DNA of 38,479 bases from an uncultured bacterium (GTDB taxonomy: Bacteria > Hydrothermota > UBA3072), in assembly GCA_964485935.1 (NCBI GenBank), contig CAZALG010000002.1, forward strand, positions 1 to 38,479, in the 5' to 3' direction. Both the position numbers and the translations under genes were made by a program. How positions within the stretch are numbered: position 1 is the stretch's first letter; every line of letters begins with the position of its first letter. The notes beneath the pieces were generated by a model that searched no databases, had not been told where the DNA came from, and was given only the letters and a program-made list of their open reading frames with translations. Of this stretch, positions 235 through 29,268 are shown one piece after another.

Positions 235-262
235 TTTCGTGTATTTAGTGTGTTTCGTGGTT
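235..262 (-). repeat. micro-tandem array, 9 nt x3 ending in GTGGTT (TTTCGTG TATTTAGTG TGTTTCGTGGTT), preceded by the G-rich complement of the C-box (223-234)
   Basis: Direct reading; 242-262 matches 29248-29268 at 20/21 positions. Confidence 0.75.
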
Positions 263-280
263 AAAAAAAAACAAATAAAG

Positions 281-312
281 AATCTTACGTCAATCTTGTG
301 TAATCTGTGGTT
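281..312 (-). repeat. micro-tandem array, 10 nt x3 ending in GTGGTT (AATCTTACGT CAATCTTGTG TAATCTGTGGTT)
   Basis: Direct reading; 289-306 is the exact reverse complement of 19648-19665 (18 nt). Confidence 0.75.
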
Positions 313-332
313 AAATTTTTGCTTTAAAAAGA

Positions 333-360
333 TTGCGAATTTCGATTTATATACTATAAT
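333..360 (+). promoter_or_regulatory. sigma70-like promoter for birA (TTGCGA-N16-TATAAT)
   Basis: -35 at 333-338 and a perfect -10 at 355-360. AGGAG at 369-373 and ATG at 380 follow. Confidence 0.55.
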
Positions 361-379
361 ACTGTATTAGGAGTAATTT

Positions 380-1069
380 ATGCCAAGATTAATAAAAGCA
401 GAGGAAGTTGATTCTACAAACGAGTGGGTTAAAAGACAGTTAGAAAAACTCAACGACCTCGATAGTTTTATTGCGAAAACACAAAATTCAGGAAAAGGAA
501 GGAATTCAAAAAACTGGTTTTCTCCCAAAGGGGGGTTGTGGTTCTCAATATTACTTGAAAATTTCTCAAGGAACGAAGGAGCTCTTTCTCTACTTTGTGC
601 AACTGCCACATGCGAGGTTCTCGAAGAACACGGCCTTTTGACTAACATTAAATGGCCTAATGACATAATATTAAAAGGGAAAAAATTAGGCGGTATTCTT
701 ATCGAAAAAGTAAAGGGTAAATTCATAATAGGGATTGGGCTAAATCTTAATTTAAACAACTCTGACTTCCCAATACCTCTTAAAGATATTGTGATAACCT
801 CTAAAGAAACACTACATAAAGAAATAGATATTGAAGCAATCGCGAAAGAAATAATCAAAAGAATTGCGAAAGACAGAAACAACCTTGAAGAAGTTCATAA
901 AAAGTATCTTAAACTAAGCGGCGATTTAAACGAAAAAGTCAAAATAAATGACGGTAAAGAAACCTTCACGGGTAAAGTCGTAGCTATACAAACAGATGGA
1001 GGAATCCAAATCAAAAACGAAAACACCGAAAAGGTCTTTTATTCGGGTAGCCTTTCTTACTTAAGCTAA
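380..1069 (+). CDS. birA: biotin--[acetyl-CoA-carboxylase] ligase, group I (no N-terminal HTH)
   Basis: GKGRNSKNWFSPKGGLWFS fits the BirA GRGRxGRxWxSPxG biotin-binding loop; KWPNDI motif; AGGAG RBS. Confidence 0.85.
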   Translation: MPRLIKAEEVDSTNEWVKRQLEKLNDLDSFIAKTQNSGKGRNSKNWFSPKGGLWFSILLENFSRNEGALSLLCATATCEVLEEHGLLTNIKWPNDIILKGKKLGGILIEKVKGKFIIGIGLNLNLNNSDFPIPLKDIVITSKETLHKEIDIEAIAKEIIKRIAKDRNNLEEVHKKYLKLSGDLNEKVKINDGKETFTGKVVAIQTDGGIQIKNENTEKVFYSGSLSYLS

Positions 1070-1175
1070 GACTAAAAACAAAAACCTCCCCACCAAATTA
1101 ATCTCACACGAAGACACAAAAAAAAAGAGAAATTATGTTGTTTCCCCAACTCCACCCCAATTTTTACACATATAA

Positions 1176-1238
1176 AAAATGTAGAACCTGTAGTTCTCAT
1201 GGTTCTCACCTCTACATTAACTACATGCTCTACATTTG
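1176..1238. repeat. 63-nt block of seven 9-mers in perfect register (xxxxTGTAG x2, TTCTCAxxx x2, CTACAxxxx x3)
   Basis: Direct reading. TGTAG and CTACA are reverse complements, giving a beaded hairpin between the convergent genes birA and 1300-1878. Confidence 0.65.
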
Positions 1239-1299
1239 TAATTTTTTTGCAGTCAACCTTTAACTCTACGGCTAAAGGCTAAAAGCAAATTGCCAATAT

Positions 1300-1878
1300 T
1301 TATTCCCCTTTAAATAAGTTCTCTATCTCGCTCCTATATTTTTCTACAATTTTCCAATTTTCTTTGCAGGCTTTCCTCTCTTCGGATTCCTCAGTTTCTT
1401 TTAGGTTTTTTCTCATCTCCTCTTTTTGCTCTTCGGGCACATTGGGATTATCAAGCATCTTTTTCATCATCTCTCCGGTGGCTGCTTCCATTTGATTATA
1501 AACAATAGCACTCATAATTTTATTATGAGTTGCGCCAAAACTTTCAAGTGTAAAACCATATTTTGCTAAAGCACCTTCGATTTCTTCTGCGTATTCCCTA
1601 AACTCTTCAGCAAACTGCATACCACTTAAAAGGTTTTCCTTATCCGTTAGCGGCTCAATCTCTTTCTCTTTTTTCTTGGTAATCTCAACGAAAACCGGAT
1701 AAGCGTCAATAAAAGCTATAACTTCTTTCTCCGTCAACAAAAGATCTTCTGCTTCCTCTTTCTTTTCTATTTTTTTCTCCGCACTTGTCTCTCCTGCCTT
1801 TTCCTCTCCTTTGCCACAGCCAGCCTGTAAAAAACAAACAATCAAAAACAATACAGATAAAAACACAATCCTTTTCAT
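1300..1878 (-). CDS. hypothetical lipoprotein (Glu/Lys-rich)
   Basis: Signal peptide with lipobox LQAGC; GGAGG 7 nt upstream of ATG. Confidence 0.6.
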   Translation of the reverse strand: MKRIVFLSVLFLIVCFLQAGCGKGEEKAGETSAEKKIEKKEEAEDLLLTEKEVIAFIDAYPVFVEITKKKEKEIEPLTDKENLLSGMQFAEEFREYAEEIEGALAKYGFTLESFGATHNKIMSAIVYNQMEAATGEMMKKMLDNPNVPEEQKEEMRKNLKETEESEERKACKENWKIVEKYRSEIENLFKGE

Positions 1879-1926
1879 ACTAAACCTCCTTTTTTCTTAC
1901 GGTTTAACATAATTTTTCTGCCATTT

Positions 1927-3033
1927 CTATTTAGCTGTTAAAACAGAAATAAGCTTGCGATTGGGAGCGCCATTCCCATCTAAAACAGGGAAATCGCCTT
2001 TATAACACCAGTGACAATAAGCGATATTGTTGGAATTAAAAATATCGCAAACATCTTTATACCAGCGCAGAGCAATCTCATCAGGAATAGTAGGATAAAC
2101 ACCAAACTCTCCGCAATACAAAGGTAAATTCTTCTCCTTTGCGACTTCTATAGCGGGAGACATTATTTTTGCCAGAGTGTCTTTTGTAAAATATCCATTA
2201 GCATACTCTCTCATAGACTCAACTGTCTTTTCCGAAAACTCCTTATAATGTGCTGTATCGATAACTTGACCCGGATAATTTACTTCTCCTTTATATTCGG
2301 CTACGGGGGACCACGGTGCCAAATGATGAGTAAGCGCCATAGGATTATAAAAATGAAAACTTAGAATGATATTCCTATCATTCTCTGGAATTCTTAGATC
2401 GGGAAAAGTCGAAGCAATCTGCCATTTATTTGAGCCAACCACTATTTTCCTCTCCGGCTCATTTATTCTGACTTCCGCGACAATTTTTTCAATTATATTA
2501 TTCCAATCCTCGGGGTCATCCGCTACAGCTTCATTTAAAATTTCATAAGCTACCATGCTGTTTGGATATTCTTTCAATTCTATAGAGAGTTGTCGCCACA
2601 AATCGATTAGCTTTTCCTGTTCAGCGGGCTCGGTCCATAAAGGATTCGTTTCAGCAATAAAATGATGGGAACGGATAATATGCAAATCCACAATTACCCT
2701 CAAATTTGCCGCAAGAGCCCAATTGATTGCATTATGCAGTAGCTTGAACGCTTCTTTTTCTTTATTCCCATCTTCATCCCACATCTGTTCTTCATCGATT
2801 GGGATTCTGACATGGTCGAATCCCACGGAGGCGATTGTATCAAAATCAGCCTTTGTAATGTAATTTTTTCTTTCTTCTCCTCTCTTATCGCTCTGTGACA
2901 ACCAGTGACTGACATTAACACCTGTTCTTATTTTAAATTCTCCTGTTGTTTCATCCGCCCTAATATTTGAGGTACACATTAAAGAAAACAATCCAATAAT
3001 TACAAAAAGAATAAATTCTAAATTATTATGCAT
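1927..3033 (-). CDS. glycoside hydrolase family 5 (endoglucanase/mannanase-like), secreted
   Basis: EILNEA (acid/base NE) and CGEFG (nucleophile) motifs at GH5 spacing. Start placed at the ATG (MHNN...) 7 nt after GGGAGG rather than the TTG given in the ORF track. Confidence 0.8.
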   Translation of the reverse strand: MHNNLEFILFVIIGLFSLMCTSNIRADETTGEFKIRTGVNVSHWLSQSDKRGEERKNYITKADFDTIASVGFDHVRIPIDEEQMWDEDGNKEKEAFKLLHNAINWALAANLRVIVDLHIIRSHHFIAETNPLWTEPAEQEKLIDLWRQLSIELKEYPNSMVAYEILNEAVADDPEDWNNIIEKIVAEVRINEPERKIVVGSNKWQIASTFPDLRIPENDRNIILSFHFYNPMALTHHLAPWSPVAEYKGEVNYPGQVIDTAHYKEFSEKTVESMREYANGYFTKDTLAKIMSPAIEVAKEKNLPLYCGEFGVYPTIPDEIALRWYKDVCDIFNSNNIAYCHWCYKGDFPVLDGNGAPNRKLISVLTAK

Positions 3034-3184
3034 TATTATCCCTCCCAATATTTCTGTTTTTACAATCTGGCTAATAAAATCTATCTATAATAACCCATAT
3101 GTCAAGTTAAATTTTGTTCTGCCTACCATTATTTTATTAATTACGTCAGCAAGAATCAGAGGGGATACCTGACCAGTGAAAGTA

Positions 3185-3213
3185 TTGACAGAATTGTGCG
3201 CTATGATTATACT
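3185..3213 (+). promoter_or_regulatory. sigma70-like promoter (TTGACA-N17-TATACT)
   Basis: Perfect -35 at 3185-3190 and -10 at 3208-3213, upstream of the 3286 gene. Confidence 0.55.
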
Positions 3214-3285
3214 TTACAGGCGGATATTAAAACTGAAAAGCGTTTGAATTGCTTAAAGTACGAATACTAAAAAAAGGAGATGCAT

Positions 3286-3894
3286 ATGTCAAAGAAAAGA
3301 TTTTCCAAACTGGCTATTTTGTTCCTAACATTTCTTTTATCGAAATCTCTTTTTCTGATAGGAGGTGAACGCCAGGGGTTTATCTGCACCGTTAACCTGG
3401 GTTATGGATTTACCAAATATCCGGAGAAAATGCAGTACTGGAGTTCAGCAGAATCTTCTGAGGATAAAATCAAAGGGGGAATCTCGATGATTGGCAAAAT
3501 AGGTTATGCCCCAAATAATCATTTGATGATTCTTCTTATTTCACCTTCGGTTTACTTCAGAAAAGAAGTAGATTCTGATAAGAAAATAATAGATAATATG
3601 TTATTCGCTCTGGGTATCAGTTACTATTTGAATGAATTTCATCCCTCCGTCTATTTCGACGTAGCTGTAGGTCTCGCTATGTGGTGGTTACCTTATGAAA
3701 CTGAAGGAAATATAGAAGATTTAGATATCCATTTGGGTATGGGAGGAACTTTAGGGGTAGGCTATGAATTTACTCACAGATGGAGTATAGAAAGCAATTT
3801 TCACTATAACCGCTTCAGCTTCAATCGAAATAATGTCGATATAACAGCGAATACTCTTTCCTGTTCGATTGTATTAAGGTATATATTTTATTAA
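3286..3894 (+). CDS. outer-membrane beta-barrel (OmpA-like barrel / porin family) protein
   Basis: Signal peptide, alternating Gly/aromatic strands, C-terminal ...LRYIFY. ATG at 3286 sits 6 nt after GGAG. Confidence 0.5.
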   Translation: MSKKRFSKLAILFLTFLLSKSLFLIGGERQGFICTVNLGYGFTKYPEKMQYWSSAESSEDKIKGGISMIGKIGYAPNNHLMILLISPSVYFRKEVDSDKKIIDNMLFALGISYYLNEFHPSVYFDVAVGLAMWWLPYETEGNIEDLDIHLGMGGTLGVGYEFTHRWSIESNFHYNRFSFNRNNVDITANTLSCSIVLRYIFY

Positions 3895-3956
3895 AATGAT
3901 AATCTTAGCTTCCGTTTTTGTTTTGTGTATATAAGAAAGAGCTTTATCATTAAAAG

Positions 3957-6212
3957 ATGTTTTTGTTTATTTATTTAATCTTAAGTGCTGGTACATACAA
4001 AGTTGTAATGGGTAAAGTATTTGACGCAATCTCAAAAGAACCTCTGCCCATGGTCAACATTGTGGTTGAAGGAACCGAAATGGGTACTACTACAGACAAC
4101 GATGGATATTACAGCATAATACTCCCCGATACACTAAAAAAAGTCAAACTTGTTTACTCTATGATGGGATATAAAAAAGTTGAGAGAGAGAGATTTTTTT
4201 TCGGCAAGGATTACGTAAAGGAAGATATAGCGATGCGAATAACCACTTTGAAATCGCAGGGTATATTGGTATCCGCAAGAAAGGAAAGATTTAAGGAATC
4301 AGCAACCATTACACCCGTTTCTTTGTCAACAGAAGACCTACTAATTCTTCCTTCTCTTTATGAAGGAGATTTAATGCGTACGTTAGAGGCTCTTCCAGGA
4401 ATCACAAAAGCTTCCGATCACACAACTGAAGTGGCGGTAAGAGGAGGAAGCCCAGACCAAAATCTGATTTTACTCGATAATATACCAATATTAAAACCAT
4501 TTCATTTAGGCGGCAATTTTTCCGCTTTTAACCTTAACGCAATTAAAAACATTGAATTGTATAAAAGTGGAATTCCGGTGGAATATGACGCATCTCTTTC
4601 TTCTGTTCTAGATGTTAAAACAAAAGGAGTGAATCGAGACATAAAAGGACTTAATGGTATTTTTTCCCTGGGACTTTTATCTGCCGGAGCAACTATTGGC
4701 GGTCCTGTGCCCTATCTAAATACGAATTTTCTCTTTACCGTCAGGAGAACTTATTACGACAAAATAATCCCAGAGGAAATGCCTTACTATTTCTATGATG
4801 GATATTTACATATTGAAAGTGATATAACTGACAGGTGGAATGCTATTTTAAGTGCTTATAGTAGTAGGGATTTCTATGATTTGAGGGATGAGGAAAATGA
4901 AGAAGTACAAATTATAGGGCTGGATTGGGATAATAAGGCCTTAGGACTAAATACATTTTATGCTGGAAGTGATGAATCTTTACTTCATTTTTCAATCGGG
5001 TGGAGTAAACATAGTTTTCATTTTAGTTTGATGGATACCATTTATGTTACAAACGGTACCATCGATGCTGTAACTGTTGGGACTGACTATACTCGTGCAT
5101 TCGGAGGGCATAAAGTGAAGTCTGGATTAAAGGAAGAGTATCGCCCTTTTAAATATGACATTAGTATGGATATGGGTATAAATTATGAATACCAGAATAT
5201 ATGGAGCAACAGAGTAATGGGTTTTATCGAAGACGAATTTTCTCCTAAAAAAGACTTGCTTTTCTCCGGGGGAATATCTTTAACACATTACTATTCTCAA
5301 ATTGAAGATTTCAACCAGAGTGAAAACGAATTGTTTGTATCTTACAGGTTGTCTGCAAAATATTTTTTAAATGAAATAAAAGCTCTTACAGTCTCTTTTG
5401 GTAATTACCATCAATATGAAGTTCCTTTAATTCCCGGAGAATCAGTGAGTGGAGGTACGAGTTCTATCTTTTACTATTTAGTTCCCCTTGGTGGAGAATA
5501 CTACCCTGAAGAAGCCCAGCATGTAAATCTTGGTTACGAAGGCTGGTTGAACGAGTCCTTCTATTTTTCACTTGAAGGGTACTACAGAATTTATAATAGA
5601 TTGTATAAAATGAGAGAGGAGTCCGAAATCGAGATCGAAAACGCTAACGATTTCTACAGAACGATGTTTGATGAAAACGAAGGTGACGCCTATGGTATGG
5701 ATTTTTTGTTAAAAAAAGAGATAGGAAAAGTAAGAGGTTGGTTTTCTTACACATTCCTTAAATCGCTTATAAAATCTGACAAAGGGTATTATCCTTCGAT
5801 ATGGGACCGAACCCACAATCTGTATTTGGTACTTTTTGCTATTCTTCCTAAAGAATGGGAAATCGGTATTCAGTTTGCTTTCTCAACAGGTAATCCATTT
5901 ACCCCCACCCTTTGCAGATACCTCTATAGAAATCCAGCCACACCTCATGACAATGATGATACCGGTTGGATGGAGCTGCAAGGAGAAAAAAACTCGGTCA
6001 GGTTTCCCTCTTATCTGCGTTTAGATATCAGCGCCACCAAGACCTTTCACTTTGGTAATAATGAAGCGGATCTTAAAATTGGCTTATACAACGCCCTGAA
6101 TCGTGAAAATGTGGTATTCTATTACTATGATTATGACGAGGAACCACCTGTTAAAGAAACTGTCGGCATGGTTCCTCTTTTACCGGCTCTTGAAGTCATC
6201 TATAGATTCTAA
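3957..6212 (+). CDS. TonB-dependent receptor with N-terminal carboxypeptidase-regulatory-like domain
   Basis: GKVFD...PLPMVNIVVEGT..GTTTDNDGYYSI (CarboxypepD_reg-like), plug-like VAVRGGSPDQNLILLDNIPI, long beta-barrel, terminal aromatic ...VIYRF. Confidence 0.7.
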   Translation: MFLFIYLILSAGTYKVVMGKVFDAISKEPLPMVNIVVEGTEMGTTTDNDGYYSIILPDTLKKVKLVYSMMGYKKVERERFFFGKDYVKEDIAMRITTLKSQGILVSARKERFKESATITPVSLSTEDLLILPSLYEGDLMRTLEALPGITKASDHTTEVAVRGGSPDQNLILLDNIPILKPFHLGGNFSAFNLNAIKNIELYKSGIPVEYDASLSSVLDVKTKGVNRDIKGLNGIFSLGLLSAGATIGGPVPYLNTNFLFTVRRTYYDKIIPEEMPYYFYDGYLHIESDITDRWNAILSAYSSRDFYDLRDEENEEVQIIGLDWDNKALGLNTFYAGSDESLLHFSIGWSKHSFHFSLMDTIYVTNGTIDAVTVGTDYTRAFGGHKVKSGLKEEYRPFKYDISMDMGINYEYQNIWSNRVMGFIEDEFSPKKDLLFSGGISLTHYYSQIEDFNQSENELFVSYRLSAKYFLNEIKALTVSFGNYHQYEVPLIPGESVSGGTSSIFYYLVPLGGEYYPEEAQHVNLGYEGWLNESFYFSLEGYYRIYNRLYKMREESEIEIENANDFYRTMFDENEGDAYGMDFLLKKEIGKVRGWFSYTFLKSLIKSDKGYYPSIWDRTHNLYLVLFAILPKEWEIGIQFAFSTGNPFTPTLCRYLYRNPATPHDNDDTGWMELQGEKNSVRFPSYLRLDISATKTFHFGNNEADLKIGLYNALNRENVVFYYYDYDEEPPVKETVGMVPLLPALEVIYRF

Positions 6213-6225
6213 AGGAGGATTGGTC

Positions 6226-6969
6226 TTGAGATGTAATTTTATACTCACACTCTTTTTAACTTCCTTTTTATTTGTTTCCTGCGAAAGCGTCACGGAAGTC
6301 CCTTTCGAGCACAAGTACTTAATCTATCTGGTTCTTAGGCCGAATATGAAATTTCAAAAAGCTTATGTGGATTCAACCTATAAGTTGACATCTACTCTTT
6401 TAGAAGGCTTTAAAGGTATATCAGACGCAGAAATATTCGCAATTGATGAGGAGCAAGACACTTTTAAATTCCGTGAGTCGGATACGATCGGTTTATACTA
6501 CAGTGATGATTCCCTGTGGGTAAAATATAGTAACCAATATATTATTCAATTAAACGTTGAAGGGCATCAAATAGAAGAAGAAATAACTGTTCCAGACTCT
6601 CTTTTTATATATTCCCCTTCCAATGGAGACACAATCTCTCTGGATGATCCTGAAATTGTTTACTGGAACAGCTGTGAAGGGTTTTTTGATAACATGTATA
6701 CTGCTCGTGTTTTTTTCGAAGGAGAATTAGACTCTTTTGGTTTTTCTTTGACAACCCAAGATACGTCTCTGGACGTTTTATCAGCCAGATATCTATTCCC
6801 CAATGTTGATACTTTTTATACCTTAGCAGTCATGGCTATGGATGAAAACTGTTTCAAAGCTGATAAAGCCAACATTAACTTTGATTACGACCAGATAAGT
6901 GCGGATTTTGCAATAGGGGTAATCGGCGCAACCGTTTTCGATACGATCAAGGTCTGGGTTACCGAGTAA
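6226..6969 (+). CDS. DUF4249-like lipoprotein partner of the TonB-dependent receptor
   Basis: Lipobox FLFVSC. TTG start 7 nt after AAGGAGG (6212-6218). Placement directly after a CarboxypepD_reg-type receptor is the typical DUF4249 context. Confidence 0.45.
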   Translation: MRCNFILTLFLTSFLFVSCESVTEVPFEHKYLIYLVLRPNMKFQKAYVDSTYKLTSTLLEGFKGISDAEIFAIDEEQDTFKFRESDTIGLYYSDDSLWVKYSNQYIIQLNVEGHQIEEEITVPDSLFIYSPSNGDTISLDDPEIVYWNSCEGFFDNMYTARVFFEGELDSFGFSLTTQDTSLDVLSARYLFPNVDTFYTLAVMAMDENCFKADKANINFDYDQISADFAIGVIGATVFDTIKVWVTE

Positions 6970-7906: not shown

Positions 7907-7917
7907 TTCAATAAAAT

Positions 7918-7946
7918 ATCGTAGCTGTTTTTTTCTCCTTTGTCAA
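7918..7946 (-). promoter_or_regulatory. sigma70-like promoter for the MBL hydrolase (TTGACA-N17-TACGAT)
   Basis: Read on the minus strand: -35 at 7946..7941, -10 at 7923..7918. The predicted TSS lies about 5 nt before the GTG start. Confidence 0.45.
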
Positions 7947-7970
7947 CCTTCAAAAAACTAAACTGTAATT

Positions 7971-7998
7971 AACCACAAAGATCACAAAGGACACAAAG
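7971..7998 (+). repeat. micro-tandem array AACCACAAAG ATCACAAAG GACACAAAG, followed by C-box CCCCTCCACCCC (7999-8010)
   Basis: Direct reading; inverted partner at 8132-8159 (24/28 identical). Confidence 0.85.
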
Positions 7999-8131
7999 CC
8001 CCTCCACCCCAACTTTAATTTATTTCTTCAAAAACTCTTCCAAACTAAAGAAAATCCCAGAAAGGATTAAACAAGATTAACGGTATTTTTATTTAAGTAA
8101 CAAATTATTTATTTAAATAAAAAATTAAAAT

Positions 8132-8159
8132 CTTTGTGCTCTTTGTGTACTTTGTGGTT
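8132..8159 (-). repeat. micro-tandem array (reverse complement AACCACAAAG TACACAAAG AGCACAAAG)
   Basis: Direct reading; the first 19 nt are identical to 19682-19700. Confidence 0.85.
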
Positions 8160-8270
8160 CAAATTTTTTAAACTTATGCTCTTGATATTTTACATTATTT
8201 AAATAAATTTAAATATTAAATTTATTTAAAATTATCGAGTATAAATCTAACCTCAGAGGGAGATAAATAT

Positions 8271-9275: not shown

Positions 9276-9326
9276 CTTTATTTTTTTTCAAACTTGAAGT
9301 AAATTTACGGAACCCAGGAGGGCAAT

Positions 9327-9602: not shown

Positions 9603-9606
9603 AAAG

Positions 9607-10356: not shown

Positions 10357-10447
10357 CGAGCAGAAGATATTAATATTTTACTTACATTTGTAAATGCTAT
10401 ATTATATTTACTTTCGTTTTCTTCGATTCAACCATTCAATCATTTAA

Positions 10448-18932: not shown

Positions 18933-19019
18933 CGGAGGGAGAGGGATTTGAACCCCCGTTCCGCTTTCGCGGAAACACGATTTCGAATCGTGCGCTTTCA
19001 ACCGCTCAGCCATCCCTCC
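18933..19019 (-). tRNA. tRNA-Ser (anticodon CGA), class II with long variable arm, no encoded CCA
   Basis: Folded by hand: acceptor GGAGGGA/TCCCTCC, anticodon stem CACGA/TCGTG, loop TTCGAAA, variable arm TTCCGCGAAAGCGGAA, T-loop GGGGGTTCAAATCCCTC. Confidence 0.9.
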
Positions 19020-19464
19020 TCTTTTTAAAAAACTTTCTCAGCAAATTTGCAGATTCTTCCTTTAAAATACCGGATGCGACCTCAAATTTCCAGTTCCAAT
19101 CTTTATTCCTCACGTCGATCACAGAACCAAAAGCCCCGAATTTTTCGTCACTCGCCCCATACACCACCCTGCTTATTCTTGCCTGAACCACAGCACCCGC
19201 ACACATAAGGCAAGGTTCGAGTGTAGAATACAGAACACTGCCATCTAATCTCCAATCTCCAATAGAATTAGCAGCTGCAGTAATAGCTATAATTTCGGCA
19301 TGAGCAGTAGGATCTTTAAGGGTTTCTTTCCTGTTTGCTCCTCTACCAATAATAGCACCATTTTTAACAACAACAGCTCCAACGGGAACCTCCTCATTGC
19401 TAAAAGAGTTCTCTGCCTCCTTCAAAGCTTCCCGCATCCATTTTTCATCTTCCGCCTTATTCAT
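19006..19464 (-). CDS. tadA: tRNA-specific adenosine-34 deaminase
   Basis: HAE and PCLMCAGA zinc motifs. Start set at the internal ATG (MNKAEDEKWM...), because the upstream 45 codons of the tracked ORF run through tRNA-Arg. Confidence 0.9.
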   Translation of the reverse strand: MNKAEDEKWMREALKEAENSFSNEEVPVGAVVVKNGAIIGRGANRKETLKDPTAHAEIIAITAAANSIGDWRLDGSVLYSTLEPCLMCAGAVVQARISRVVYGASDEKFGAFGSVIDVRNKDWNWKFEVASGILKEESANLLRKFFKKRRDG

Positions 19465-19485
19465 ATAAATTTTTTCGTCAACAAG

Positions 19486-19559
19486 TACGCCTGAGAGGAT
19501 TCGAACCTCCAACCTGCGGATCCGTAGTCCGCCGCTCTTTCCAGTTGAGCTACAGGCGT
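19486..19559 (-). tRNA. tRNA-Arg (anticodon ACG), no encoded CCA
   Basis: Folded by hand: acceptor ACGCCTG/CAGGCGT, D arm GCTC..GAGC, anticodon stem GCGGA/TCCGC, loop CTACGGA, T arm GGAGGTTCGAATCCTCT. Confidence 0.9.
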
Positions 19560-19571
19560 AATATAATTTAA

Positions 19572-19599
19572 AATATACAATAAACCCTTTTACTGTCAA
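19572..19599 (-). promoter_or_regulatory. sigma70-like promoter for the tRNA-Arg/tadA unit (TTGACA-N16-TATATT)
   Basis: Minus strand: -35 at 19599..19594, -10 at 19577..19572, about 12 nt before the mature tRNA 5' end. Confidence 0.55.
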
Positions 19600-19640
19600 G
19601 ACTAATAAAAAGAGCCTTTTGTTCCTTATTTTTTGAAAGA

Positions 19641-19671
19641 AAACACGAGATTACACAAGATTGACACTGAT
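19641..19671 (+). repeat. micro-tandem array, 10 nt x3 (AAACACGAGATT ACACAAGATT GACACTGAT)
   Basis: Direct reading; 18-mer shared with 289-306 (reverse complement). Confidence 0.75.
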
Positions 19672-19681
19672 AAAAAATTTA

Positions 19682-19709
19682 AACCACAAAGTACACAAAG
19701 GTCAGAAAG
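19682..19709 (+). repeat. micro-tandem array AACCACAAAG TACACAAAG GTCAGAAAG
   Basis: Direct reading; 19-nt identity with the reverse complement of 8141-8159. Confidence 0.8.
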
Positions 19710-19795
19710 TTTTTATTTGTTTCTTAAGCTAATAGCAAACGGCCAGCCACTAAAAGCTATGCTTTAAAACTAATTAAACCGTCAATAAAAAGTAT

Positions 19796-21046: not shown

Positions 21047-21152
21047 AACAGCCTCCTTTTAATTCAAAAATTTCAACAAAAATAAATATATTTAACTATT
21101 CTCTAATCCTCAGAAAAGAAAGAATTTACTTGGGCACATTCGCCGCCCCCAA

Positions 21153-22367: not shown

Positions 22368-22391
22368 TTAACCTCCTAAAAATTAAAATCT

Positions 22392-23834: not shown

Positions 23835-23869
23835 ACATACCTCCCTCCGAATTTCACGCCATAGTTTTT

Positions 23870-24133
23870 TTAAAGATCCAACTCCAAGCCAAAACTTTTA
23901 ATGAATTTTTTTAATAGACTTTTATTAAGCTGATAGAAAACCCATCTTTTATACCGCCTCTTTAAAACCAAACCCGATTCTTCAAGCCTTCTAAGATGAT
24001 GGGAAACAGTAGGCTGGGAAAGTTTTAGCGCTTCAACAATTTTAGAAACATTTTTTTCCCCTTGATTCAGTATCTTCAATATTTTCAACCTGGTACCATC
24101 CGCCAACAAATAAAGAATACTATTTATATCCAT
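23870..24133 (-). CDS. ArsR/SmtB-family transcriptional regulator
   Basis: LADGTRLKILKIL...NVSKIVEALKLSQPTVSHHLRRLEESGLV winged-HTH signature. ATG 4 nt after AGGAGG. Confidence 0.8.
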   Translation of the reverse strand: MDINSILYLLADGTRLKILKILNQGEKNVSKIVEALKLSQPTVSHHLRRLEESGLVLKRRYKRWVFYQLNKSLLKKFIKSFGLELDL

Positions 24134-24199
24134 CAAACCTCCTAATAAGCTAAATTACAAATTTAATATATAGACGACTATCTATATATCACTTTTTCC

Positions 24200-24227
24200 A
24201 CTATAATAAATTATTGAGTTTTGTCAA
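24200..24227 (-). promoter_or_regulatory. sigma70-like promoter for the ArsR / radical-SAM / apgM operon (TTGACA-N16-TATAGT)
   Basis: Minus strand: -35 at 24227..24222, -10 at 24205..24200. Confidence 0.5.
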
Positions 24228-24249
24228 GGGGGGCTACCTCCCATTTTTT

Positions 24250-24267
24250 ACCACAGCACACACAGAG
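24250..24267 (+). repeat. two-unit micro-array ACCACAGCA CACACAGAG
   Basis: CACAG at 24252 and 24261 (9-nt period). Read on the minus strand, GTGGTA lies 21 nt upstream of the ArsR -35. Confidence 0.5.
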
Positions 24268-24389
24268 CAAAAAATAGATTCTTACGTAACTTCCTTATCT
24301 TAAAAACAAAAATCCGTTGTAAATACTTGTGAATACCAGATTTGTAATGTTTGAACACAAAATTTTGGGAAGGCAAGCAACTTTGCCTC

Positions 24390-24419
24390 TTGACAAAGTT
24401 CCAAAATACTTTAATTATA
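24390..24419 (+). promoter_or_regulatory. sigma70-like promoter for the rib operon (TTGACA-N17-AATTAT)
   Basis: Perfect -35 at 24390-24395 and an AT-rich -10 around 24413-24419, immediately 5' of the riboswitch. Confidence 0.5.
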
Positions 24420-24422
24420 GAG

Positions 24423-24536
24423 TATCTCTTCGGGGTTGGGTGTAATTCCCAACCGGCGGTGAAAGCCCGCGAGGAGCAATCCTGATTCGGTGGAATTCCG
24501 AAGCCGACGGTGAAAGTCCGGATGAGAGAAGGGAAT
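24423..24536 (+). promoter_or_regulatory. FMN riboswitch (RFN element) aptamer
   Basis: CTCTTCGGGGTTGGGTGTAATTCCCAACCGGCGGTGAAAGCCCGCGAG...GGTGGAATTCCGAAGCCGACGGTGAAAGTCCGGATGAGAGAAGGG closely follows the conserved RFN core. It lies directly upstream of ribD. Confidence 0.9.
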
Positions 24537-24545
24537 TATATTCAG

Positions 24546-24568
24546 AAAACCCCGAAGAGGGGTTTTTT
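24546..24568 (+). terminator. riboswitch expression-platform terminator AAAACCCC-gaaga-GGGGTTTTTT
   Basis: 8-bp stem plus T6 run ending at the ribD ATG. The 3' arm contains the only SD-like purines (GAGGGG). Confidence 0.7.
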
Positions 24569-25633
24569 ATGAATAAATTAGATGAATATTTTTTAAAAGA
24601 AACATTTGAACTTGCGAGAACCGCTGAAGGAATTGTTTCACCCAATCCTCTTGTTGGAGCCTGTGTAGTAAAGAATGGAGTTATTGTCGGTAGAGGTTAT
24701 CATAAAGGGCCGGGAACTCCGCACGCTGAAGTCGAAGCTATCACAGAAGCCGGAGACAAAACTAAAGATGCTACTTTATATGTTTCTCTCGAACCTTGTT
24801 GTCACCACGGAAATACACCTCCATGCGTAGAACTTATCGAATCCAAAGGAATAAAAAGGGTTGTTGCCCCAATAAAAGACCCCAATCCTCTTGTCAATGG
24901 CAAAGGTTTTAAACGCCTGAGGAGTAAAGGAATCCAGGTTAAAACAGAAATTCTCGAAGAAGAAGCGAAGAAACTCAATTCTTTCTACTTAAAATATATT
25001 ACAAAGAAAACCCCTTATGTTATTTTAAAAGCGGCCATGACCCTTGACGGGAAAATCGGAGATCCTAGCAGAGGGATTTACAAAATATCAGGCGACGAGT
25101 CTCATAAGGAAGTTCACCGCCTGAGAAATAAAGTAGATGCAATTCTAATTGGTGTTGGAACTGTCTTGAGTGATAATCCAGCCCTGACAGTACGGAAAGT
25201 TAAAGCAACCAAACAACCCTACAAAATCATAATAGATCCCACTCTTAAGTGCTCTGCGGACGCAAAAATTTTCCGGGGAGGAGGTAAGGTCATTCTTGTT
25301 ACGACTAAAAAAGAAGCAAAAGAAAAATATCCTGATGCAGAAATATGGATTTTTAAAGAAAAAAACAGCTTCATAGATGTTAAAGAGATTTTGAAAAGAG
25401 CAGGCGAAGAGAACATCACTTCGATTGTGGTGGAAGGGGGCAGTAAAACTTTTACTCAATTCGTTAAATCTGAAACAGTGGATAAATATCTTCTTTTCTT
25501 TTCTCCTTCTTTTATAGGTAAAGGAGTTTCTTTAATCGATTCCCCTTTGAAAAGAGTTTTTTTAGATGCAAGTGTAGGGAAAATAGGAGAAGATATTTTA
25601 ATAGAGGCTAATAATGTTTACGGGAATAATTAA
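24569..25633 (+). CDS. ribD: bifunctional diaminohydroxyphosphoribosylaminopyrimidine deaminase / 5-amino-6-(5-phosphoribosylamino)uracil reductase
   Basis: HAEVEA and PCCHHGNTPPC deaminase motifs; C-terminal reductase domain (TLDGKI). Confidence 0.9.
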   Translation: MNKLDEYFLKETFELARTAEGIVSPNPLVGACVVKNGVIVGRGYHKGPGTPHAEVEAITEAGDKTKDATLYVSLEPCCHHGNTPPCVELIESKGIKRVVAPIKDPNPLVNGKGFKRLRSKGIQVKTEILEEEAKKLNSFYLKYITKKTPYVILKAAMTLDGKIGDPSRGIYKISGDESHKEVHRLRNKVDAILIGVGTVLSDNPALTVRKVKATKQPYKIIIDPTLKCSADAKIFRGGGKVILVTTKKEAKEKYPDAEIWIFKEKNSFIDVKEILKRAGEENITSIVVEGGSKTFTQFVKSETVDKYLLFFSPSFIGKGVSLIDSPLKRVFLDASVGKIGEDILIEANNVYGNN

Positions 25634-26195
25634 AAATGTAATCAAGCTTGATAGAGTAAAAAAGAATAAAAACGATATGGTGATTCACTTAATGCTGCCT
25701 TTCCCCGCGAACACGGGAGACAGTGTTTCTGTGAACGGTGCCTGTTTGACGGTTTCTAAAATATTGGGGAAAACCTATATCTTCGATGTTTCTTCCGAAA
25801 CTCTTTTCCGCAGCAATCTTTCTAATCTCAATGTTGGCGATTGGGTAAATGTCGAACCTTCACTCACCGCAGGGGATTTACTTCACGGACATCTTGTTTA
25901 CGGGCATATAGACGGAGTCGGTAAAATTTTGAGCATAAAGAAAACCCGGGATACCTATGAATTTATCCTTGAATATCCTTCCGAACTTTCAAAGTTTCTT
26001 GCCGAAAAAGGCAGCATTGCGCTCGATGGAGTTTCTCTTACTATTACCGAAGTAAAAGAAAAAAGTTTTAAGATTGTTATGGTTAAGCATACTTTATTAA
26101 ATACAAACTTTAAATACAAAAAAAGGGGAGATATCGTGAATATTGAAATAGATCCACTGGCAAGATATTTGCAAAGATTATTGGAGTTCAAATGA
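25614..26195 (+). CDS. ribE: riboflavin synthase
   Basis: MFTGII N-terminus, duplicated lumazine-binding repeats (SVNGACLTV / ALDGVSLTI). Confidence 0.9.
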
Positions 26196-27397
26196 AGAAG
26201 TTTAGTTCCATAGACGATATAATTGAAGACGTCAAAAAAGGTAAACCTCTTATTGTGGTAGACGATGAAGACAGAGAAAACGAAGGGGATTTTGTAGTGG
26301 TTTCAGAGAAAGTTACTCCCGAGACAATAAATTTTATGGCAAAAGAAGGTCGTGGTCTGATTTGTGTTTCTCTTACCCAGAAAAGATTAATTGAACTTGA
26401 ACTTCCCCTAATGACTACAAATATTACGGCCCGCCACGGAACGGCTTTTGCTGTTTCGGTTGATGCTAAAGATGGCACAACTACTGGCATTAGTGCGTTT
26501 GATAGAGCTGCAACCATTAAAAAACTTATTGATCCCAAAACAAAACCTTCGGACCTTTCAAGACCCGGGCATGTTTTTCCTATAATGGCAAAAGAAGGTT
26601 GCACCTTAAGAAGAGCAGGCCACACTGAAGCTTCTATAGACATTGCCAAGATAGCAGGACTATATCCTTCAGCTGTTATTTGCGAAATAATGGATGAAGA
26701 CGGAACTATGGCAAGGTTGCCGCGTCTCCTCGAGATCGCGGATAAGCATAATCTTAAAATAACTACAGTAAAAAGTCTGATAGAGTACAGACAAAAAAGA
26801 GAAAAACTAATTAACAGAGAAACAGAAGTTGCCTTTCCTACTCATCATGGAAAATTTCGGCTTATTCCTTACACAAATGTTATAGATGAGAAGGTCCATA
26901 TTGTTCTTGTCAAAGGAAAAGTAAGTAATCAAAAGGATGTTTTGGTTAGAGTTCATTCGGAATGTTTAACCGGAGACACGCTTCGTTCTCTCCGGTGTGA
27001 TTGCGGAGAACAACTTGTGAATGCCCTAAAAGCTATACAGAAAGAAGGTAGAGGCGTTTTTCTGTATATGAGACAAGAAGGAAGAGGGATAGGGCTGCTA
27101 AATAAACTTAAAGCTTATAGTCTTCAAGACGAAGGATTCGACACAGTCCAGGCAAATGAAAAGCTGGGCTTCAGGATGGACCTACGCGACTATGGAATAG
27201 GAGCTCAGATACTAAAAGATCTTGGCTTATCAACCATTCGTCTTCTAACAAATAATCCGAGAAAAATTGTGGGTTTGGAAGGTTACGGTCTCAAAGTAAC
27301 CGAAAGAGTTCCAATAGAAATCGAACCGACGGAAGAAAATATTAAATATCTAAAAACAAAGAAAAACAAATTAGGTCATACACTTAAAAATGTTTAA
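26192..27397 (+). CDS. ribBA: bifunctional 3,4-dihydroxy-2-butanone-4-phosphate synthase / GTP cyclohydrolase II
   Basis: [10 protein letters not shown] (DHBP synthase) and HSECLTGD...CDCG (GCH II zinc site). Confidence 0.95.
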
Positions 27398-27409
27398 GAA
27401 GGAGGGTTT

Positions 27410-27874
27410 ATGGAATACAAGGGTTTAATCAAAGGAAAAGGAATTAAAATAGCAATTATTGTACCCCGATTTAACTCCAGAGTAACAGGGATATTAAAAG
27501 AAGGAGCGATGGACTGTTTAAGACAGCATGAAGTAAAAGAAGAAGACATCGATACATATTGGGTCCCGGGTTCTTTCGAGCTACCTATGCTTCTTTCCAA
27601 GGTTGTAAAAATTAAAAAATATGATGGGTTTTTAGTCCTTGGAGCTTTAATCAGGGGTGAAACACCTCATTTTGATCATCTCGCGACGGAAACAACAAAA
27701 GGTATAGCCAAGATATCACTCGAGATAAAAAAGCCTGTAGGGTACGGGGTTATAACTGCCGACACAGAAGAACAAGCTTTAAGTAGAGCGGGGATGAAAG
27801 TCGGCAATAAAGGATGGGATGCGGCTTTGACAACTCTTGAAATGATAAACCTTTACAAAGAAATAGAAAAGTGA
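27410..27874 (+). CDS. ribH: 6,7-dimethyl-8-ribityllumazine synthase
   Basis: IAIIVPRFN...VPGSFELP...GETPHFD signature; GGAGGG RBS. Confidence 0.95.
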   Translation: MEYKGLIKGKGIKIAIIVPRFNSRVTGILKEGAMDCLRQHEVKEEDIDTYWVPGSFELPMLLSKVVKIKKYDGFLVLGALIRGETPHFDHLATETTKGIAKISLEIKKPVGYGVITADTEEQALSRAGMKVGNKGWDAALTTLEMINLYKEIEK

Positions 27875-28296
27875 AGAGTAAAGGATCAAGAAGACTCGGC
27901 AGGATACTTGCGGCTCAAGTCCTTTATCCCAAGAGGATAAATCTTAAGCTTTCAACCGCTCATCTCGAGAAAATTATTAGTTTAAACAGACAGGATTACG
28001 ATGAAGAAGCTTTAGCTTTCGCAAAAACCCTGTTGAATCTGGTAGAAGAACACTTAGAGGAGGCAGATAAATTAATTAAAACGGTTCTTGAAAATTGGGA
28101 ATGGGACCGACTCTGCGCTATGGATAGAGCCATTCTTGGGATAGCTGTATTGGAACTGCTATACTTGCCTGACGTTCCTGCAAGGGTAACAATTAATGAA
28201 GCAATTGAAATTGCAAAGGAATTCTCAACTGAGAAATCAGGTATATTCGTCAATGGTATACTTGATTCAATCGCGAGAGAAAAAGGACTTTTATGA
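27871..28296 (+). CDS. nusB: transcription antitermination factor NusB
   Basis: ILGIAVLELLYLPDVPARVTINEAIEIAKEF...FVNGILD. The conserved ribH-nusB adjacency is also present. Confidence 0.85.
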   Translation: MKSKGSRRLGRILAAQVLYPKRINLKLSTAHLEKIISLNRQDYDEEALAFAKTLLNLVEEHLEEADKLIKTVLENWEWDRLCAMDRAILGIAVLELLYLPDVPARVTINEAIEIAKEFSTEKSGIFVNGILDSIAREKGLL

Positions 28297-29024
28297 TATA
28301 TGGCGTAATTTCTGACATACACGGAAATTTAGAAGCGCTTCTTGCTACCTTAGAAAGCATTAAATCTTACAAAAAAAAGATAGACAAAATTATATGCCTG
28401 GGAGATATTGTGGGTTATGGAGCAGATCCGGGTGAATGTATCAGAATTACCAGGGAAATTTCTGACGTTATTCTTGCCGGCAACCACGATTTCGCGGTTT
28501 GCGAACAAACAAGCATAGAAGCTTTTAATGCGTACGCACGCGCAGCAGTTCTTTGGAGTAGAGACGCGCTGAATGAAGATGAAATTAATTTTTTGAAAGA
28601 TTTACCTCTAATATATGGAGAAAAAAGCACGGATTTTGTTCATTCTTCCCTACATCGACCGGAGTCCTGGAGATATCTTTCCGGAACTCCTGATACATAT
28701 ATAGATTTCCAGATTATGGAAAAAAATGTGCTTTTTGTAGGACATACTCACGTCCCGGTAATTTTTGAAAACGAAGGAATGGAGGTAAAAAGACTAAATT
28801 CTTCTGAGTTATTCTTGAATCCGAACAAAAAATACATTATAAATCCCGGTAGCGTGGGGCAACCGAGAGATAGGGACCAGAGAGCCTCTTTCTCTATTTT
28901 TGACTTAGAAAACAAATCTATTGAAACGATCCGTGTCGAATACGATATCAAGGAAGCACAAAGAAAAATCCTGAATGCCGGACTCCCCGAAGTCCTGGCT
29001 AATCGTTTAAGTTACGGAGGATAA
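28293..29024 (+). CDS. metallophosphoesterase family protein (YfcE/MJ0936-like)
   Basis: DIHGN, GDIVGYG, GNHD and GHTH metal-binding motifs in canonical order. Confidence 0.75.
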   Translation: MIYGVISDIHGNLEALLATLESIKSYKKKIDKIICLGDIVGYGADPGECIRITREISDVILAGNHDFAVCEQTSIEAFNAYARAAVLWSRDALNEDEINFLKDLPLIYGEKSTDFVHSSLHRPESWRYLSGTPDTYIDFQIMEKNVLFVGHTHVPVIFENEGMEVKRLNSSELFLNPNKKYIINPGSVGQPRDRDQRASFSIFDLENKSIETIRVEYDIKEAQRKILNAGLPEVLANRLSYGG

Positions 29025-29106
29025 CAGGAAGGAGAATCTTTGGATTGATACCGTTCAAATTTTTTTAAATATCTCATTTTATTTCGATTTTATGAGAAAT
29101 AAAATA

Positions 29107-29147
29107 TCAAAATTTAAAAAGCAAAATGACAGATCAAAATTCAAAAT
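29107..29147 (+). repeat. 7-nt micro-array TCAAAAT TTAAAAA GCAAAAT (gacaga) TCAAAAT TCAAAAT
   Basis: Direct reading; inverted partner at 29347-29367. Confidence 0.6.
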
Positions 29148-29178
29148 CATACTTTACTCTAACCGCTAAGTCCAAAAA

Positions 29179-29208
29179 AATCGTGTTATCAGTATTATTC
29201 GTTGTTAC
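29179..29208 (-). repeat. degenerate GTG-form micro-array (AATCGTGTT ATCAGTATT ATTCGTTGTTAC)
   Basis: Direct reading; 9-10-nt period. Confidence 0.45.
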
Positions 29209-29247
29209 TTTTTTAGCTGGGAGGTTAGGAAATTAAAAAACAAAAAA

Positions 29248-29268
29248 TATTTAGTGTATTTCGTGGTT
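29248..29268 (-). repeat. GTG-form micro-array TATTTAGTG TATTTCGTGGTT
   Basis: 20/21 identical to 242-262. Confidence 0.8.

Follow-up and report, generated by a model that had tools for sequence, protein, structure and literature searches.

CAC-N-RAK repeat arrays in the intergenic DNA of an uncultured Hydrothermota bacterium: candidate repeated sites shared with distant phyla and viral contigs

Short segments of intergenic DNA recur, almost letter for letter and kilobases apart, in a contig of an uncultured bacterium (Hydrothermota UBA3072; CAZALG010000002.1 of assembly GCA_964485935.1), where they lie within arrays of short direct repeats built on the motif CAC. Are these arrays copies of one another, products of slippage, or sites maintained by selection on their repeated unit? 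The stretch analysed, here called the window, comprises 38,479 nt. An earlier note on this DNA had reported four matches between arrays, all of which we found: positions 242-262 and 29248-29268 agree at 20 of 21 nt, the 18 nt of 289-306 recur exactly, on the opposite strand, at 19648-19665, as do the 19 nt of 8141-8159 at 19682-19700, and the 13-mer at 151-163 recurs at 32425-32437. Chance was modelled by dinucleotide shuffles of the window, counting k-mers shared on either strand at distances above 200 nt. Five shared 18-mers were observed against 0.1 expected (shuffle maximum 2), and 24 shared 15-mers against 6.2. The claim that the matches exceed chance holds for the 18-mer, the 19-mer and the 20/21 match but not for the 13-mer alone, as 135 shared 13-mers were observed against 81 expected, with a shuffle maximum of 141. 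Both copies of this 13-mer sit in TGAT-class arrays.

Read on the strand that carries CAC, an array consists of a head followed by 2-4 units of the form CAC-N-R-A-K, each with a C-poor spacer of 2-3 nt; the number of units is rarely 8 or more, and in some contigs arrays have expanded to 7-8 units or beyond. The head is usually TTAACCAC, with the variants TTAGCCAC, TGAACCAC and GGCCAC, and follows the pattern T-T-(N)-A-A/G-C-CAC; heads read TTAAC, TGAAC or TTAGC before CAC; TTAAC is found in just 55 of 262 heads and the distance from TT to CAC is variable. The window contains the core classes CACAAAG, CACAGAG, CACAGAT, CACTGAT, CACGAAA/CACTAAA and CACAAAT/CACGAAT, and over all collected arrays the core is CAC-N-R-A-K with a free fourth position (CACAAAG, CACGAAG, CACCAAG and CACTAAG all occur), written x in the class names below. 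The repeat period is specific to the class: 433 of 487 steps in xAAG arrays are 9 bp and 28 of 31 in xGAT arrays are 10 bp, while the xGAG class has a 9-bp period. Spacers avoid C, usually end in A before the next CAC, and shift from T to G as the G+C content (GC) of the genome rises. A single array is a direct repeat without self-complementarity; only pairs of arrays are inverted. Units of xGAT arrays recur every 10 nt and each contains a TGA or TAA, so three of them place a stop in all three frames of the CAC strand.

The distribution of the arrays was examined in the window and 12 relatives (227 kb, 9% of it called intergenic), these relatives being uncultured metagenome-assembled genomes (MAGs) labelled WOR-3, TA06 or Stahlbacteria that were found through a scan with the Maf protein. 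Labels beginning with L designate the other loci compared, namely relatives, metagenome contigs, plasmid records and viral contigs. Chains were defined as CAC-anchored units at 9-11 nt spacing with at most one mismatch. Four chains of at least three CAC units are present in the window against 0.00 in 200 shuffles, and its 3.7 kb of intergenic DNA holds 11 chains of at least two units against 0.12 expected; altogether there are about 16 intergenic arrays in the 38 kb. Across the whole set 49 of 61 chains are intergenic, an enrichment of more than 40-fold, and several of the 12 others fall in spurious open reading frames (ORFs). The distances between successive CAC motifs in intergenic DNA peak at 9 nt (42 cases) and at 10 nt (21 cases), where the background is about 7, and no such peak was seen in the coding DNA of these 13 sequences.

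In the lineage of the window a C-rich block (such as CCCCTCCACCCCAAC) and then a T-rich linker often come after the last unit, and composites of array, C- or G-rich block and T-rich linker fill most operon boundaries. Besides 7999-8013 in the window, C-blocks follow arrays in L061, L066, L067, L078, L133 and L146. Blocks of this type (CCCCNCCACCCC) stand at the tail ends of many arrays (1-13, 223-234, 7999-8013 and 32412-32423 in the window) and were seen in WOR-3-like genomes only; a related 8-mer, CACCCAAC, is 46-fold enriched in intergenic DNA.

The orthologous sites of the relatives show what is kept and what changes. Synteny is conserved and breaks only in array-bearing intergenic regions. 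Between the comEA-like gene and the adenosine kinase gene, the window has one AGAT and one TGAT array; an AAAG array precedes CTCTGTG arrays in L002, L004, L005 and L007; GAAT arrays are found in L003, L006 and L009; and in L001, the closest relative, whose genes are about 92% identical in DNA, the gap is just 11 nt long and without an array. The region upstream of maf measures 88 nt in L001 versus 313-406 nt in most relatives. The AGAG arrays of the window, L002, L006 and L009 start 1 nt past the stop codon of the ODP-family gene, and L001 has GGAT/TGAT arrays there. A site keeps its occupancy, but the array in it is exchanged for one of another class or disappears. This points to replacement; the suggestion that dispersed copies then evolved in concert is not supported, as orthologous loci show a class swap or the loss of an array, not gradual homogenisation. 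The array regions are the fastest-changing DNA of the window neighbourhood, and at 29027-29374, 32316-32460 and 19627-19706 the intergenic DNA of L001 is much shorter or wholly different.

Within arrays that can be aligned between relatives, differences among the orthologous AAAG arrays of L002, L004, L005 and L007 fall on 1 of 24 core positions, on 3 of 4 spacer positions and on most flanking positions (hand count). The orthologous AGAG arrays of the window, L002, L006 and L009 have invariant cores and the spacers GC, GT, AT and GT. In these alignments the core is under purifying selection and the spacers are free. The other suggestion of the earlier note, selection on the unit that repeats, as would follow from a single factor reading every unit, is the best fit: the 7-nt cores do not vary between orthologous arrays, between non-orthologous ones or between genomes of 35-72% GC, while the spacers are free.

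The constraint on the core also bears on the long identities. That the tails are uniform within each array was borne out, with a mean 7-nt core distance of 0.25 within arrays versus 1.85 between them and one exception at 235-259, where GAAA, TAAA and GAAA alternate; this uniformity is best read as local duplication together with purifying selection on each unit. The arrays had further been called homologous copies and not slippage products. They do form one sequence family, but the long identities are no proof of recent common descent, because the cores are fixed and a shared spacer alone suffices: two AAAG arrays share a 19-mer whenever their first spacers coincide, which has P = 0.106 per pair (estimated from 123 unrelated arrays) and 0.29 for the three AAAG arrays of the window. 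In keeping with this, L004:2903-2932, which belongs to another locus of another species, repeats the array at 7969-7998 without change over 30 nt. The 18-21-nt identities thus stem mainly from fixed cores and occasional spacer coincidence. Some copy-level homology is nevertheless real. The 18-mer AGATTACACAAGATTGAC is counted as such because it lies in an irregular array with a 10-11-nt period, where fixed cores alone would not yield the match, and the composite of array, C-block and TTAATTTATT (7971 onward) is 82-91% identical over 55-92 nt to L066, L067, L133 and L146, in unrelated flanks.

The CAC-N-RAK family is not specific to one genome or phylum. The exact pattern AACCACAAAG-NN-CACAAAG-NN-CACAAAG, with 24 specified bases, occurs in at least 120 metagenome contigs with a GC of 0.35-0.72, and outside the AAAG arrays of these contigs nothing is conserved but T-T ahead of the head. 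A BLAST search of plasmid records, some of which resemble chromosome fragments, returned the same architecture in Runella slithyformis, Bacteroides finegoldii, Nostoc (a CGC/CAC variant), Anabaena cylindrica, Gloeothece PCC 7424 and the purple sulfur bacterium Candidatus Thiodictyon syntrophicum. The range of the family thus covers WOR-3-like MAGs, Bacteroidota, Cyanobacteriota, a Chromatiaceae plasmid, unidentified high-GC contigs and viral contigs. Density is low in B. finegoldii, with two paired sites in 50 kb, versus that of the window. The xGAT pattern (19 specified bases) is present in at least 120 IMG/VR viral stretches versus about 0.4 by chance (our estimate), and the AAAG pattern gave 6 matches there. 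In contrast to the IMG/VR viral contigs, none of 50,697 GenBank phage records matched. By sequence or by description, we found no published account of CAC-N-RAK arrays in the open literature, which is no proof that none exists.

This spread leaves little room for a mutational by-product, namely replication slippage in AT-rich intergenic DNA that would produce arrays without function. Near-identical units within an array, the expansion seen in some contigs and the presence of tandem arrays of unrelated units, period 7-9, in the same intergenic regions are what slippage would give, but it does not account for the same 24 specified bases in several phyla over that range of GC, for cores that stay invariant while the intervening spacers diverge, or for a distinct, non-repeated head that is conserved. 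We regard slippage alone as extremely improbable and largely refuted. The unrelated arrays lie at 35744-35788 of the window, L002:7590-7730, L009:14300-14360 and L007:13060-13100; their units are TTTACAA-like, CCTAA/CTAAC-like or AGCTAA-like, and CGGACTAACTGACTAAC of L007 includes the published TAACTGA heptamer.

Neighbouring arrays also obey a rule of orientation. Within 150 nt of each other they are mostly convergent with heads outward, 80 pairs versus 18 with heads inward (10:0, 42:16 and 28:2 by set). The arms of a pair are inverted and head-terminal, and their symmetry extends into TTAAC and GTTAA; they differ in spacers, class and unit number. Arm spacers match as complements at 46 of 136 positions versus 43.4 +/- 5.4 expected, which argues against selection for a perfect hairpin. 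Such a hairpin, in RNA or as a cruciform, was rejected, since spacers are complementary at chance level only, though the cores can pair. The pair at 7969-8013 and 8130-8162 could form a stem of three ~7-bp helices separated by 2x2 internal loops (DNA fold z = -4.56).

Repeated contact sites for an oligomer that recognises a sequence would be expected to look like this, with cores fixed, spacers free, a head set apart and units recurring about once per helical turn. The prevalence of convergent pairs and their placement between operons bring to mind repetitive extragenic palindromic (REP) sequences and bacterial interspersed mosaic elements (BIMEs). We therefore read the arrays, tentatively and with a confidence a little short of even, as repeated cis-sites for a putative oligomeric, sequence-specific factor, arranged in REP/BIME-like composites. 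Each unit would be the contact site for one subunit of a nucleic-acid-binding oligomer; the head would nucleate binding, which the units would extend cooperatively. The substrate would most likely be double-stranded DNA, and a convergent pair would make a symmetric site at an operon boundary, comparable to REP/BIME. Whole units would be gained and lost by slippage, and arrays may be exchanged between loci through recombination with other copies.

Several points weigh against this reading. The reader is putative and binding itself is inferred from sequence. Turnover of loci is fast between 92%-identical genomes, a behaviour that fits selfish repeats better than regulatory sites, and the distances from arrays to promoters, start codons or stop codons are variable. 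Arrays lie on a single strand in several viral contigs, as described below, which a symmetric duplex-binding model does not predict. The main difficulty is the period: 9-bp and 10-bp repeats cannot both hold three sites on one face of B-DNA, so that a single rigid reader of the duplex is awkward, and the class-specific period favours flexible linkers, several paralogous readers, or reading of a single strand.

Turnover of this kind is what selfish miniature mobile elements would show. A convergent pair would then be a tiny non-autonomous transposon mobilised in trans, with the heads as terminal inverted repeats and the units as subterminal sites of a transposase or recombinase, the cores being kept for mobility; element and enzyme would spread horizontally, phages included. 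The dominance of heads-outward pairs and the reach of their inverted symmetry fit this explanation, as do rapid turnover with empty sites in the closest relative, composites that recur at non-orthologous loci in many copies per genome, AT-rich sequence unaltered in contigs of 72% GC, arrays in viral contigs, and a patchy distribution across phyla. Against it, no target-site duplication was found in 74 heads-outward pairs at lengths of 2-9 nt and offsets of 0-7, where there was no excess over shuffled partners except for a palindromic GC artefact. The comparison of orthologous regions proposed in the earlier note gave loss and class swaps between relatives, and filled and empty sites are not separated by clean breakpoints. 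Many arrays are solo or tandem, arrays in some contigs have their heads inward, and several classes with different periods stand side by side in one genome. No transposase is encoded among the genes of the window, and no protein family is common to the array-rich viral stretches, on which ground a phage-encoded reader was also rejected. We consider a mobile element unlikely, if a serious alternative.

Miniature inverted-repeat transposable elements (MITEs), to which the Correia element of Neisseria belongs, offer a comparison. CAC pairs resemble MITEs in their length (65-200 bp), in termini that are inverted at least in orientation, with the most conserved bases outermost, and in being intergenic with many copies. 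Unlike MITEs they have no target-site duplication and no defined internal sequence, their arms differ in class and unit number, and solo and tandem arrays are common. The assignment as MITEs was rejected for want of a target-site duplication. The heads-inward arrangement is that of L118, a metagenome contig with a GC of 0.44, where a near-identical composite of about 170 nt stands at every operon boundary between 4900 and 14300, convergent or divergent. Its order is array, head, a 50-nt core in either orientation, head and array, opposite to the layout in WOR-3. Integron-like cassettes were considered for L118 and rejected, as its genes are housekeeping (prolyl-tRNA synthetase, aminopeptidase P, RapZ). 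A composite of the same type is present in L075. L118 also encodes DUF4270, a domain that we take to be associated with Bacteroidetes.

Several viral contigs have all of their arrays on one strand, namely L179 (10 of 10), L183 (8 of 8), L185 (8 of 8), L202 (8 of 8) and L204 (7 of 7). L183 and L204 belong to one Mu-like phage contig, IMGVR_UViG_3300031885_000054, which encodes a transposase (phrog_310), a major head protein and a head-tail adaptor; its 15 arrays are all on the minus strand, while the genes among which they lie are on the minus strand in L183 and on the plus strand in L204, a statement that assumes that both loci are stored in contig orientation. The arrays could be signals with a polarity that are read while DNA is single-stranded or being translocated, in replication, recombination or packaging, in the manner of Chi sites, of FtsK orienting polar sequences (KOPS) or of DnaA-box arrays, with the head as a strong box. 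The one-strand contigs, the Mu-like contig in which genes switch strand and arrays do not, and the variable 9-11-nt spacing, which is easier to accommodate on a single strand, speak for polar reading, and the head TTAACCACA has 8 of the 9 bases of the DnaA box TTATCCACA, while the Thiodictyon head is exactly TTATCCACA. On the other side, both orientations occur within one intergenic region of cellular contigs; the TT-CAC distance is not fixed, TTAAC is confined to a minority of heads and internal units have no TTAT half; unlike Chi or KOPS, the arrays are kept out of coding DNA; and the phage argument depends on the assumption about orientation just given. We think polar signals of this kind improbable. 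With respect to Chi and KOPS, orientation is uniform in some viral contigs and mixed or paired in cellular ones, and coding DNA is avoided.

A bolder proposal joins the cellular and the viral arrays, and we hold it to be rather improbable: CAC-N-RAK arrays may be orientation-sensitive docking sites of a conserved, novel genome-level system that is shared by several phyla and engaged by phages. If so, cells would keep docking sites as convergent pairs at operon boundaries, some phages would keep every copy on one strand, and the arrays would constitute polar signals of a new type that serve to organise the chromosome, in recombination or in defence. Chi sites, and the Type III restriction sites of phage T7 that all have a single orientation, are parallels for sites sensitive to orientation.

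The resemblance to DnaA boxes is limited to the head. The low-affinity DnaA-site arrays of Escherichia coli oriC are reportedly anchored by the strong outer boxes R1 and R4, as Rozgaja and colleagues are said to have described in 2011. CAC arrays share with them a strong outer head that resembles TTATCCACA, same-orientation weaker sites about one turn apart and two arrays that face each other, but they number hundreds per genome versus one locus and have a period of 9-10 bp versus 11 bp, and the internal units share only CAC(A) with the DnaA box. A cluster of DnaA boxes would have 9-mers of the form TTATNCACA in fixed register, whereas only the head comes close, so this identification was set aside; none of the loci compared carries dnaA. 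L160, which is plasmid pTs485 of Ca. Thiodictyon syntrophicum, has at about 1000-1180 an xGAT pair; its head, TTATCCACAGATGAA, is an exact canonical DnaA-box 9-mer and overlaps the stop codon of a hydrolase gene.

Reading at the level of RNA was weighed against the position of the arrays relative to genes. Relative to flanking genes, arrays are oriented 57 versus 42 and 59 versus 40, and in co-directional gaps 8 versus 16 (hand count). There is thus no strand bias, which argues against an RNA-level and favours a DNA-level reading. Post-transcriptional signals in mRNA leaders or trailers, bound by S1, cold-shock or CsrA-like proteins, would agree with the array at 32425-32457, which ends 5 nt before GGAGG, with the one at 35671, which starts 1 nt past a stop codon, with a purine-rich CAC strand whose spacers avoid C, and with a taxon range that resembles that of TAACTGA repeats, for which an RNA-level role has been proposed (PMC4679880). 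They do not agree with the near equality of orientations, with one phage that has sense arrays in one block and antisense arrays in another, or with the several arrays that lie upstream of -35-like boxes and so would not be transcribed with the gene. Rfam holds no matching family: at the gathering threshold the window gave only an FMN riboswitch and two tRNAs and the arrays were unmatched, and at E <= 1 fifteen pair-bearing loci gave only sub-threshold miRNA-like hairpin noise. An RNA signal is, in our view, very improbable. Resemblances to CsrA (GGA), boxA, Shine-Dalgarno-like and WhiA (GACAC) sites were rejected, as each hinges on particular spacers.

Promoter elements fared no better. Promoter-like -35 boxes lie downstream of several arrays, other arrays directly adjoin ribosome-binding sites (RBSs) or stop codons, and those at the adenosine kinase gene and at convergent gene ends have no adjoining promoter. 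An upstream element at fixed distance was rejected, since GTGGTT lies 20-24 nt from the -35 box at three genes and 11-70 nt or more elsewhere, and a Bacteroidetes-type promoter (TTTG / TAnnTTTG) was rejected for a misfit of register and because the lineage uses TTGACA.

Among known systems, the nearest published phenomenon that we found is the TAACTGA heptamer, present as direct repeats in Beggiatoaceae, Cyanobacteria and Bacteroidetes (MacGregor 2015, PMC4679880). Both are short direct repeats, the heptamers with 2-6 copies per set, nearly all intergenic and often next to start or stop codons, with a patchy range over Cyanobacteria, Bacteroidetes and sulfur-oxidising Gammaproteobacteria and with gain and loss at orthologous regions (PMC4679880). 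Unlike the heptamers, which are identical head to tail, CAC units combine a 7-nt core with a free spacer (9/10-bp period), and the arrays have a non-repeated head, several CAC-N-RAK classes, convergent pairing and frequent viral occurrence. PMC4679880 also cites the short tandemly repeated repetitive (STRR) heptamers of cyanobacteria and the 'long simple sequence repeats' that Mrazek et al. described. An STRR-type simple tandem repeat was rejected, as variable 2-3-nt spacers separate the cores and Tandem Repeats Finder (TRF) gives matches of 70-93% only.

As described in PMC2817692 and PMC3733652, REP elements, BIMEs and REPINs (REP doublets) are high-copy and intergenic at operon boundaries, form alternating or inverted, lineage-specific mosaics with linkers, and turn over rapidly between relatives, all of which the CAC arrays do; REP elements are also known as protein-binding sites, according to PMC2817692. 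High copy number, extragenic position and alternating orientation are found here in the intergenic share of the chains, in the excess of heads-outward pairs and in the composite at each boundary of L118. Identity with REP/BIME was nonetheless rejected on two grounds: each REP repeat is an imperfect palindrome of 20-40 bp, while a single CAC array is not palindromic, and the conserved terminal tag GTAG or CGTC (PMC3733652) is absent from the heads. Moreover, REP sequences are species-specific, whereas CAC-N-RAK cores are identical across phyla. No gene for a REP-associated tyrosine transposase (RAYT) was seen among those of the window.

A working analogy for the reading as oligomer sites is offered by the direct-repeat operators of oligomeric regulators, namely MraZ boxes, OmpR/PhoB-type repeats, and the heptad or iteron centromeres of omega and ParR. 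By analogy, the arrays may share with these at least three short direct repeats about one helical turn apart that are read cooperatively by an oligomer, but such operators occupy one or few loci per replicon with family-specific sequences, and none is known to have a CAC-N-RAK core or a genome-wide spread. In the MraZ operator at least three direct repeats with GTG(G/T), spaced by 10 bp, precede mraZ/dcw; the CAC arrays are genome-wide, their cores (TTTGTG, ATCNGTG) appear to differ from the published boxes, and no dcw cluster lies among the loci compared. A clustered regularly interspaced short palindromic repeat (CRISPR) array is excluded by units of 9-10 nt with 2-3-nt spacers, versus repeats of 23-50 nt with unique spacers of similar length.

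Descriptions of short interspersed tandem repeats in Cyanobacteria, Bacteroidetes and sulfur bacteria go back to about 1990, and to our knowledge no function proposed for them has found acceptance. The present arrays, a small and sharply defined cis-element common to distant phyla and viral contigs, give sharp handles on the question of what reads such repeats: a bipartite 7-nt core fixed from 35 to 72% GC, free spacers that serve as an internal neutral control, a period set by class, the convergent-pair rule, cultured and tractable hosts (Bacteroides, Runella, Anabaena) and strand-polar viral contigs. Together they make the identity of the reader directly testable. In practice the arrays are landmarks of operon boundaries in WOR-3 and other little-studied phyla and explain hypervariable intergenic regions between close relatives, and they can yield false repeat or mobile-element signals in annotation.

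The arrays and associated blocks of the window are collected in Table 1. Its genes are housekeeping and include those for biotin ligase, a TonB-dependent receptor, CysRS, RsmB, the riboflavin operon, Maf and adenosine kinase.

Table 1: Arrays and C- or G-rich blocks of the window, in order of position.
Position	Strand	Feature	Remarks
1-13	+	C-rich block CCACCCACAACCC	Clipped by window edge; would follow an array left of the window
18-47	+	xAAT array, period 9, TTAAC-AACAAAT-TG-CACAAAT-TC-CACAAAT	Order C-block, TTTTTTAAC, AACAAAT also in L061 and L067
58-89	+	xGAT/GAAT array, period 10, TTAGCCACCGAT-TTT-CACGAAT-TAG-CACGGAT	
151-180	-	Degenerate xGAT array, reverse complement GGCCACGGATGAAGGTAGATAAACACTGAT	Holds 13-mer 151-163
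223-264	-	G-block GGGGGTGTGGGG (223-234) and GAAA/TAAA/GAAA array, period 9, terminal head GTGGTTAA	Holds 242-262
289-314	-	Two-unit array AACCACAGATTA-CACAAGATTGAC (reverse complement)	Holds 18-mer; ~20 nt upstream of promoter-like site TTGCGA-N17-TATAAT of biotin ligase gene (hexamers by eye)
1085-1160	+	Faint, decayed CAC units with a C-block (CCCCACCAAATTAATCTCACACGAAGACAC ... CTCCACCCCA), flanked by convergent genes	By eye, below scanner threshold
7969-8013	+	AAAG array TTAACCACAAAG-AT-CACAAAG-GA-CACAAAG (7969-7998) and C-block CCCCTCCACCCCAAC (7999-8013)	Left arm of convergent pair
8130-8162	-	AAAG array ATCTTTGTG-CT-CTTTGTG-TA-CTTTGTGGTTCAA	Right arm of pair; holds 19-mer 8141-8159
19644-19671	+	Irregular array, period 10-11, CACGAGATTA-CACAAGATTGA-CACTGAT	Holds 18-mer partner 19648-19665
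19682-19709	+	AAAG array AACCACAAAG-TA-CACAAAG-GT-CAGAAAG, third unit degenerate	Upstream of opposite-strand tRNA-Arg promoter
29248-29270	-	Two-unit GAAA/TAAA array, reverse complement TCAACCACGAAATACACTAAATA	20/21 partner; 19 nt identical to array L103:7146
29286-29311	-	Degenerate mixed array, reverse complement GCCACAAAGTTACAGAGAACACACAG	
32350-32379	+	AGAT array, period 10, AGCCACAGAT-GAA-CACAGAT-AAA-AACAGAT	Encloses stop codon of comEA-like ORF (32359-32361)
32412-32457	-	G-block GGGATGGGATGG (32412-32423) and TGAT array, period 10, ATCAGTG x3, terminal GTGGTTAA	Ends 5 nt before adenosine-kinase RBS (GGAGG)
35671-35720	+	Two AGAG arrays, period 9, TTAACCACAGAG-GC-CACAGAG and CACAGAG-AA-CACAGAG	1 nt after stop of ODP-family (flavodiiron-like) gene

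Some features of the window lie beside the arrays. The C-terminus of the comEA-like ORF, which ends inside an array, varies among relatives. At maf, the window (29384-29420) and the orthologous sites L001-L012 have a conserved TTGACA-N17-TATCAT followed after 6-7 nt by ATG, which suggests that the maf mRNA is leaderless or nearly so, and CTTGACA is the most enriched intergenic 7-mer of the lineage (21-fold). The FMN riboswitch at 24422-24537 (+; 113.8 bits) has a terminator-like stem and lies directly upstream of ribD-ribE-ribBA (24569-27874). The listed ORF of 197 aa at 19006-19599 (-) overlaps tRNA-Ser (18933-19019) and tRNA-Arg (19485-19559) and is very likely spurious. Finally, in the convergent gap past the AGAG arrays, the hairpin GACATTC-TTCG-GAATGTC at 35792-35808 (+) stands downstream of a TGTATAAT-like box and could be a small RNA or a terminator.

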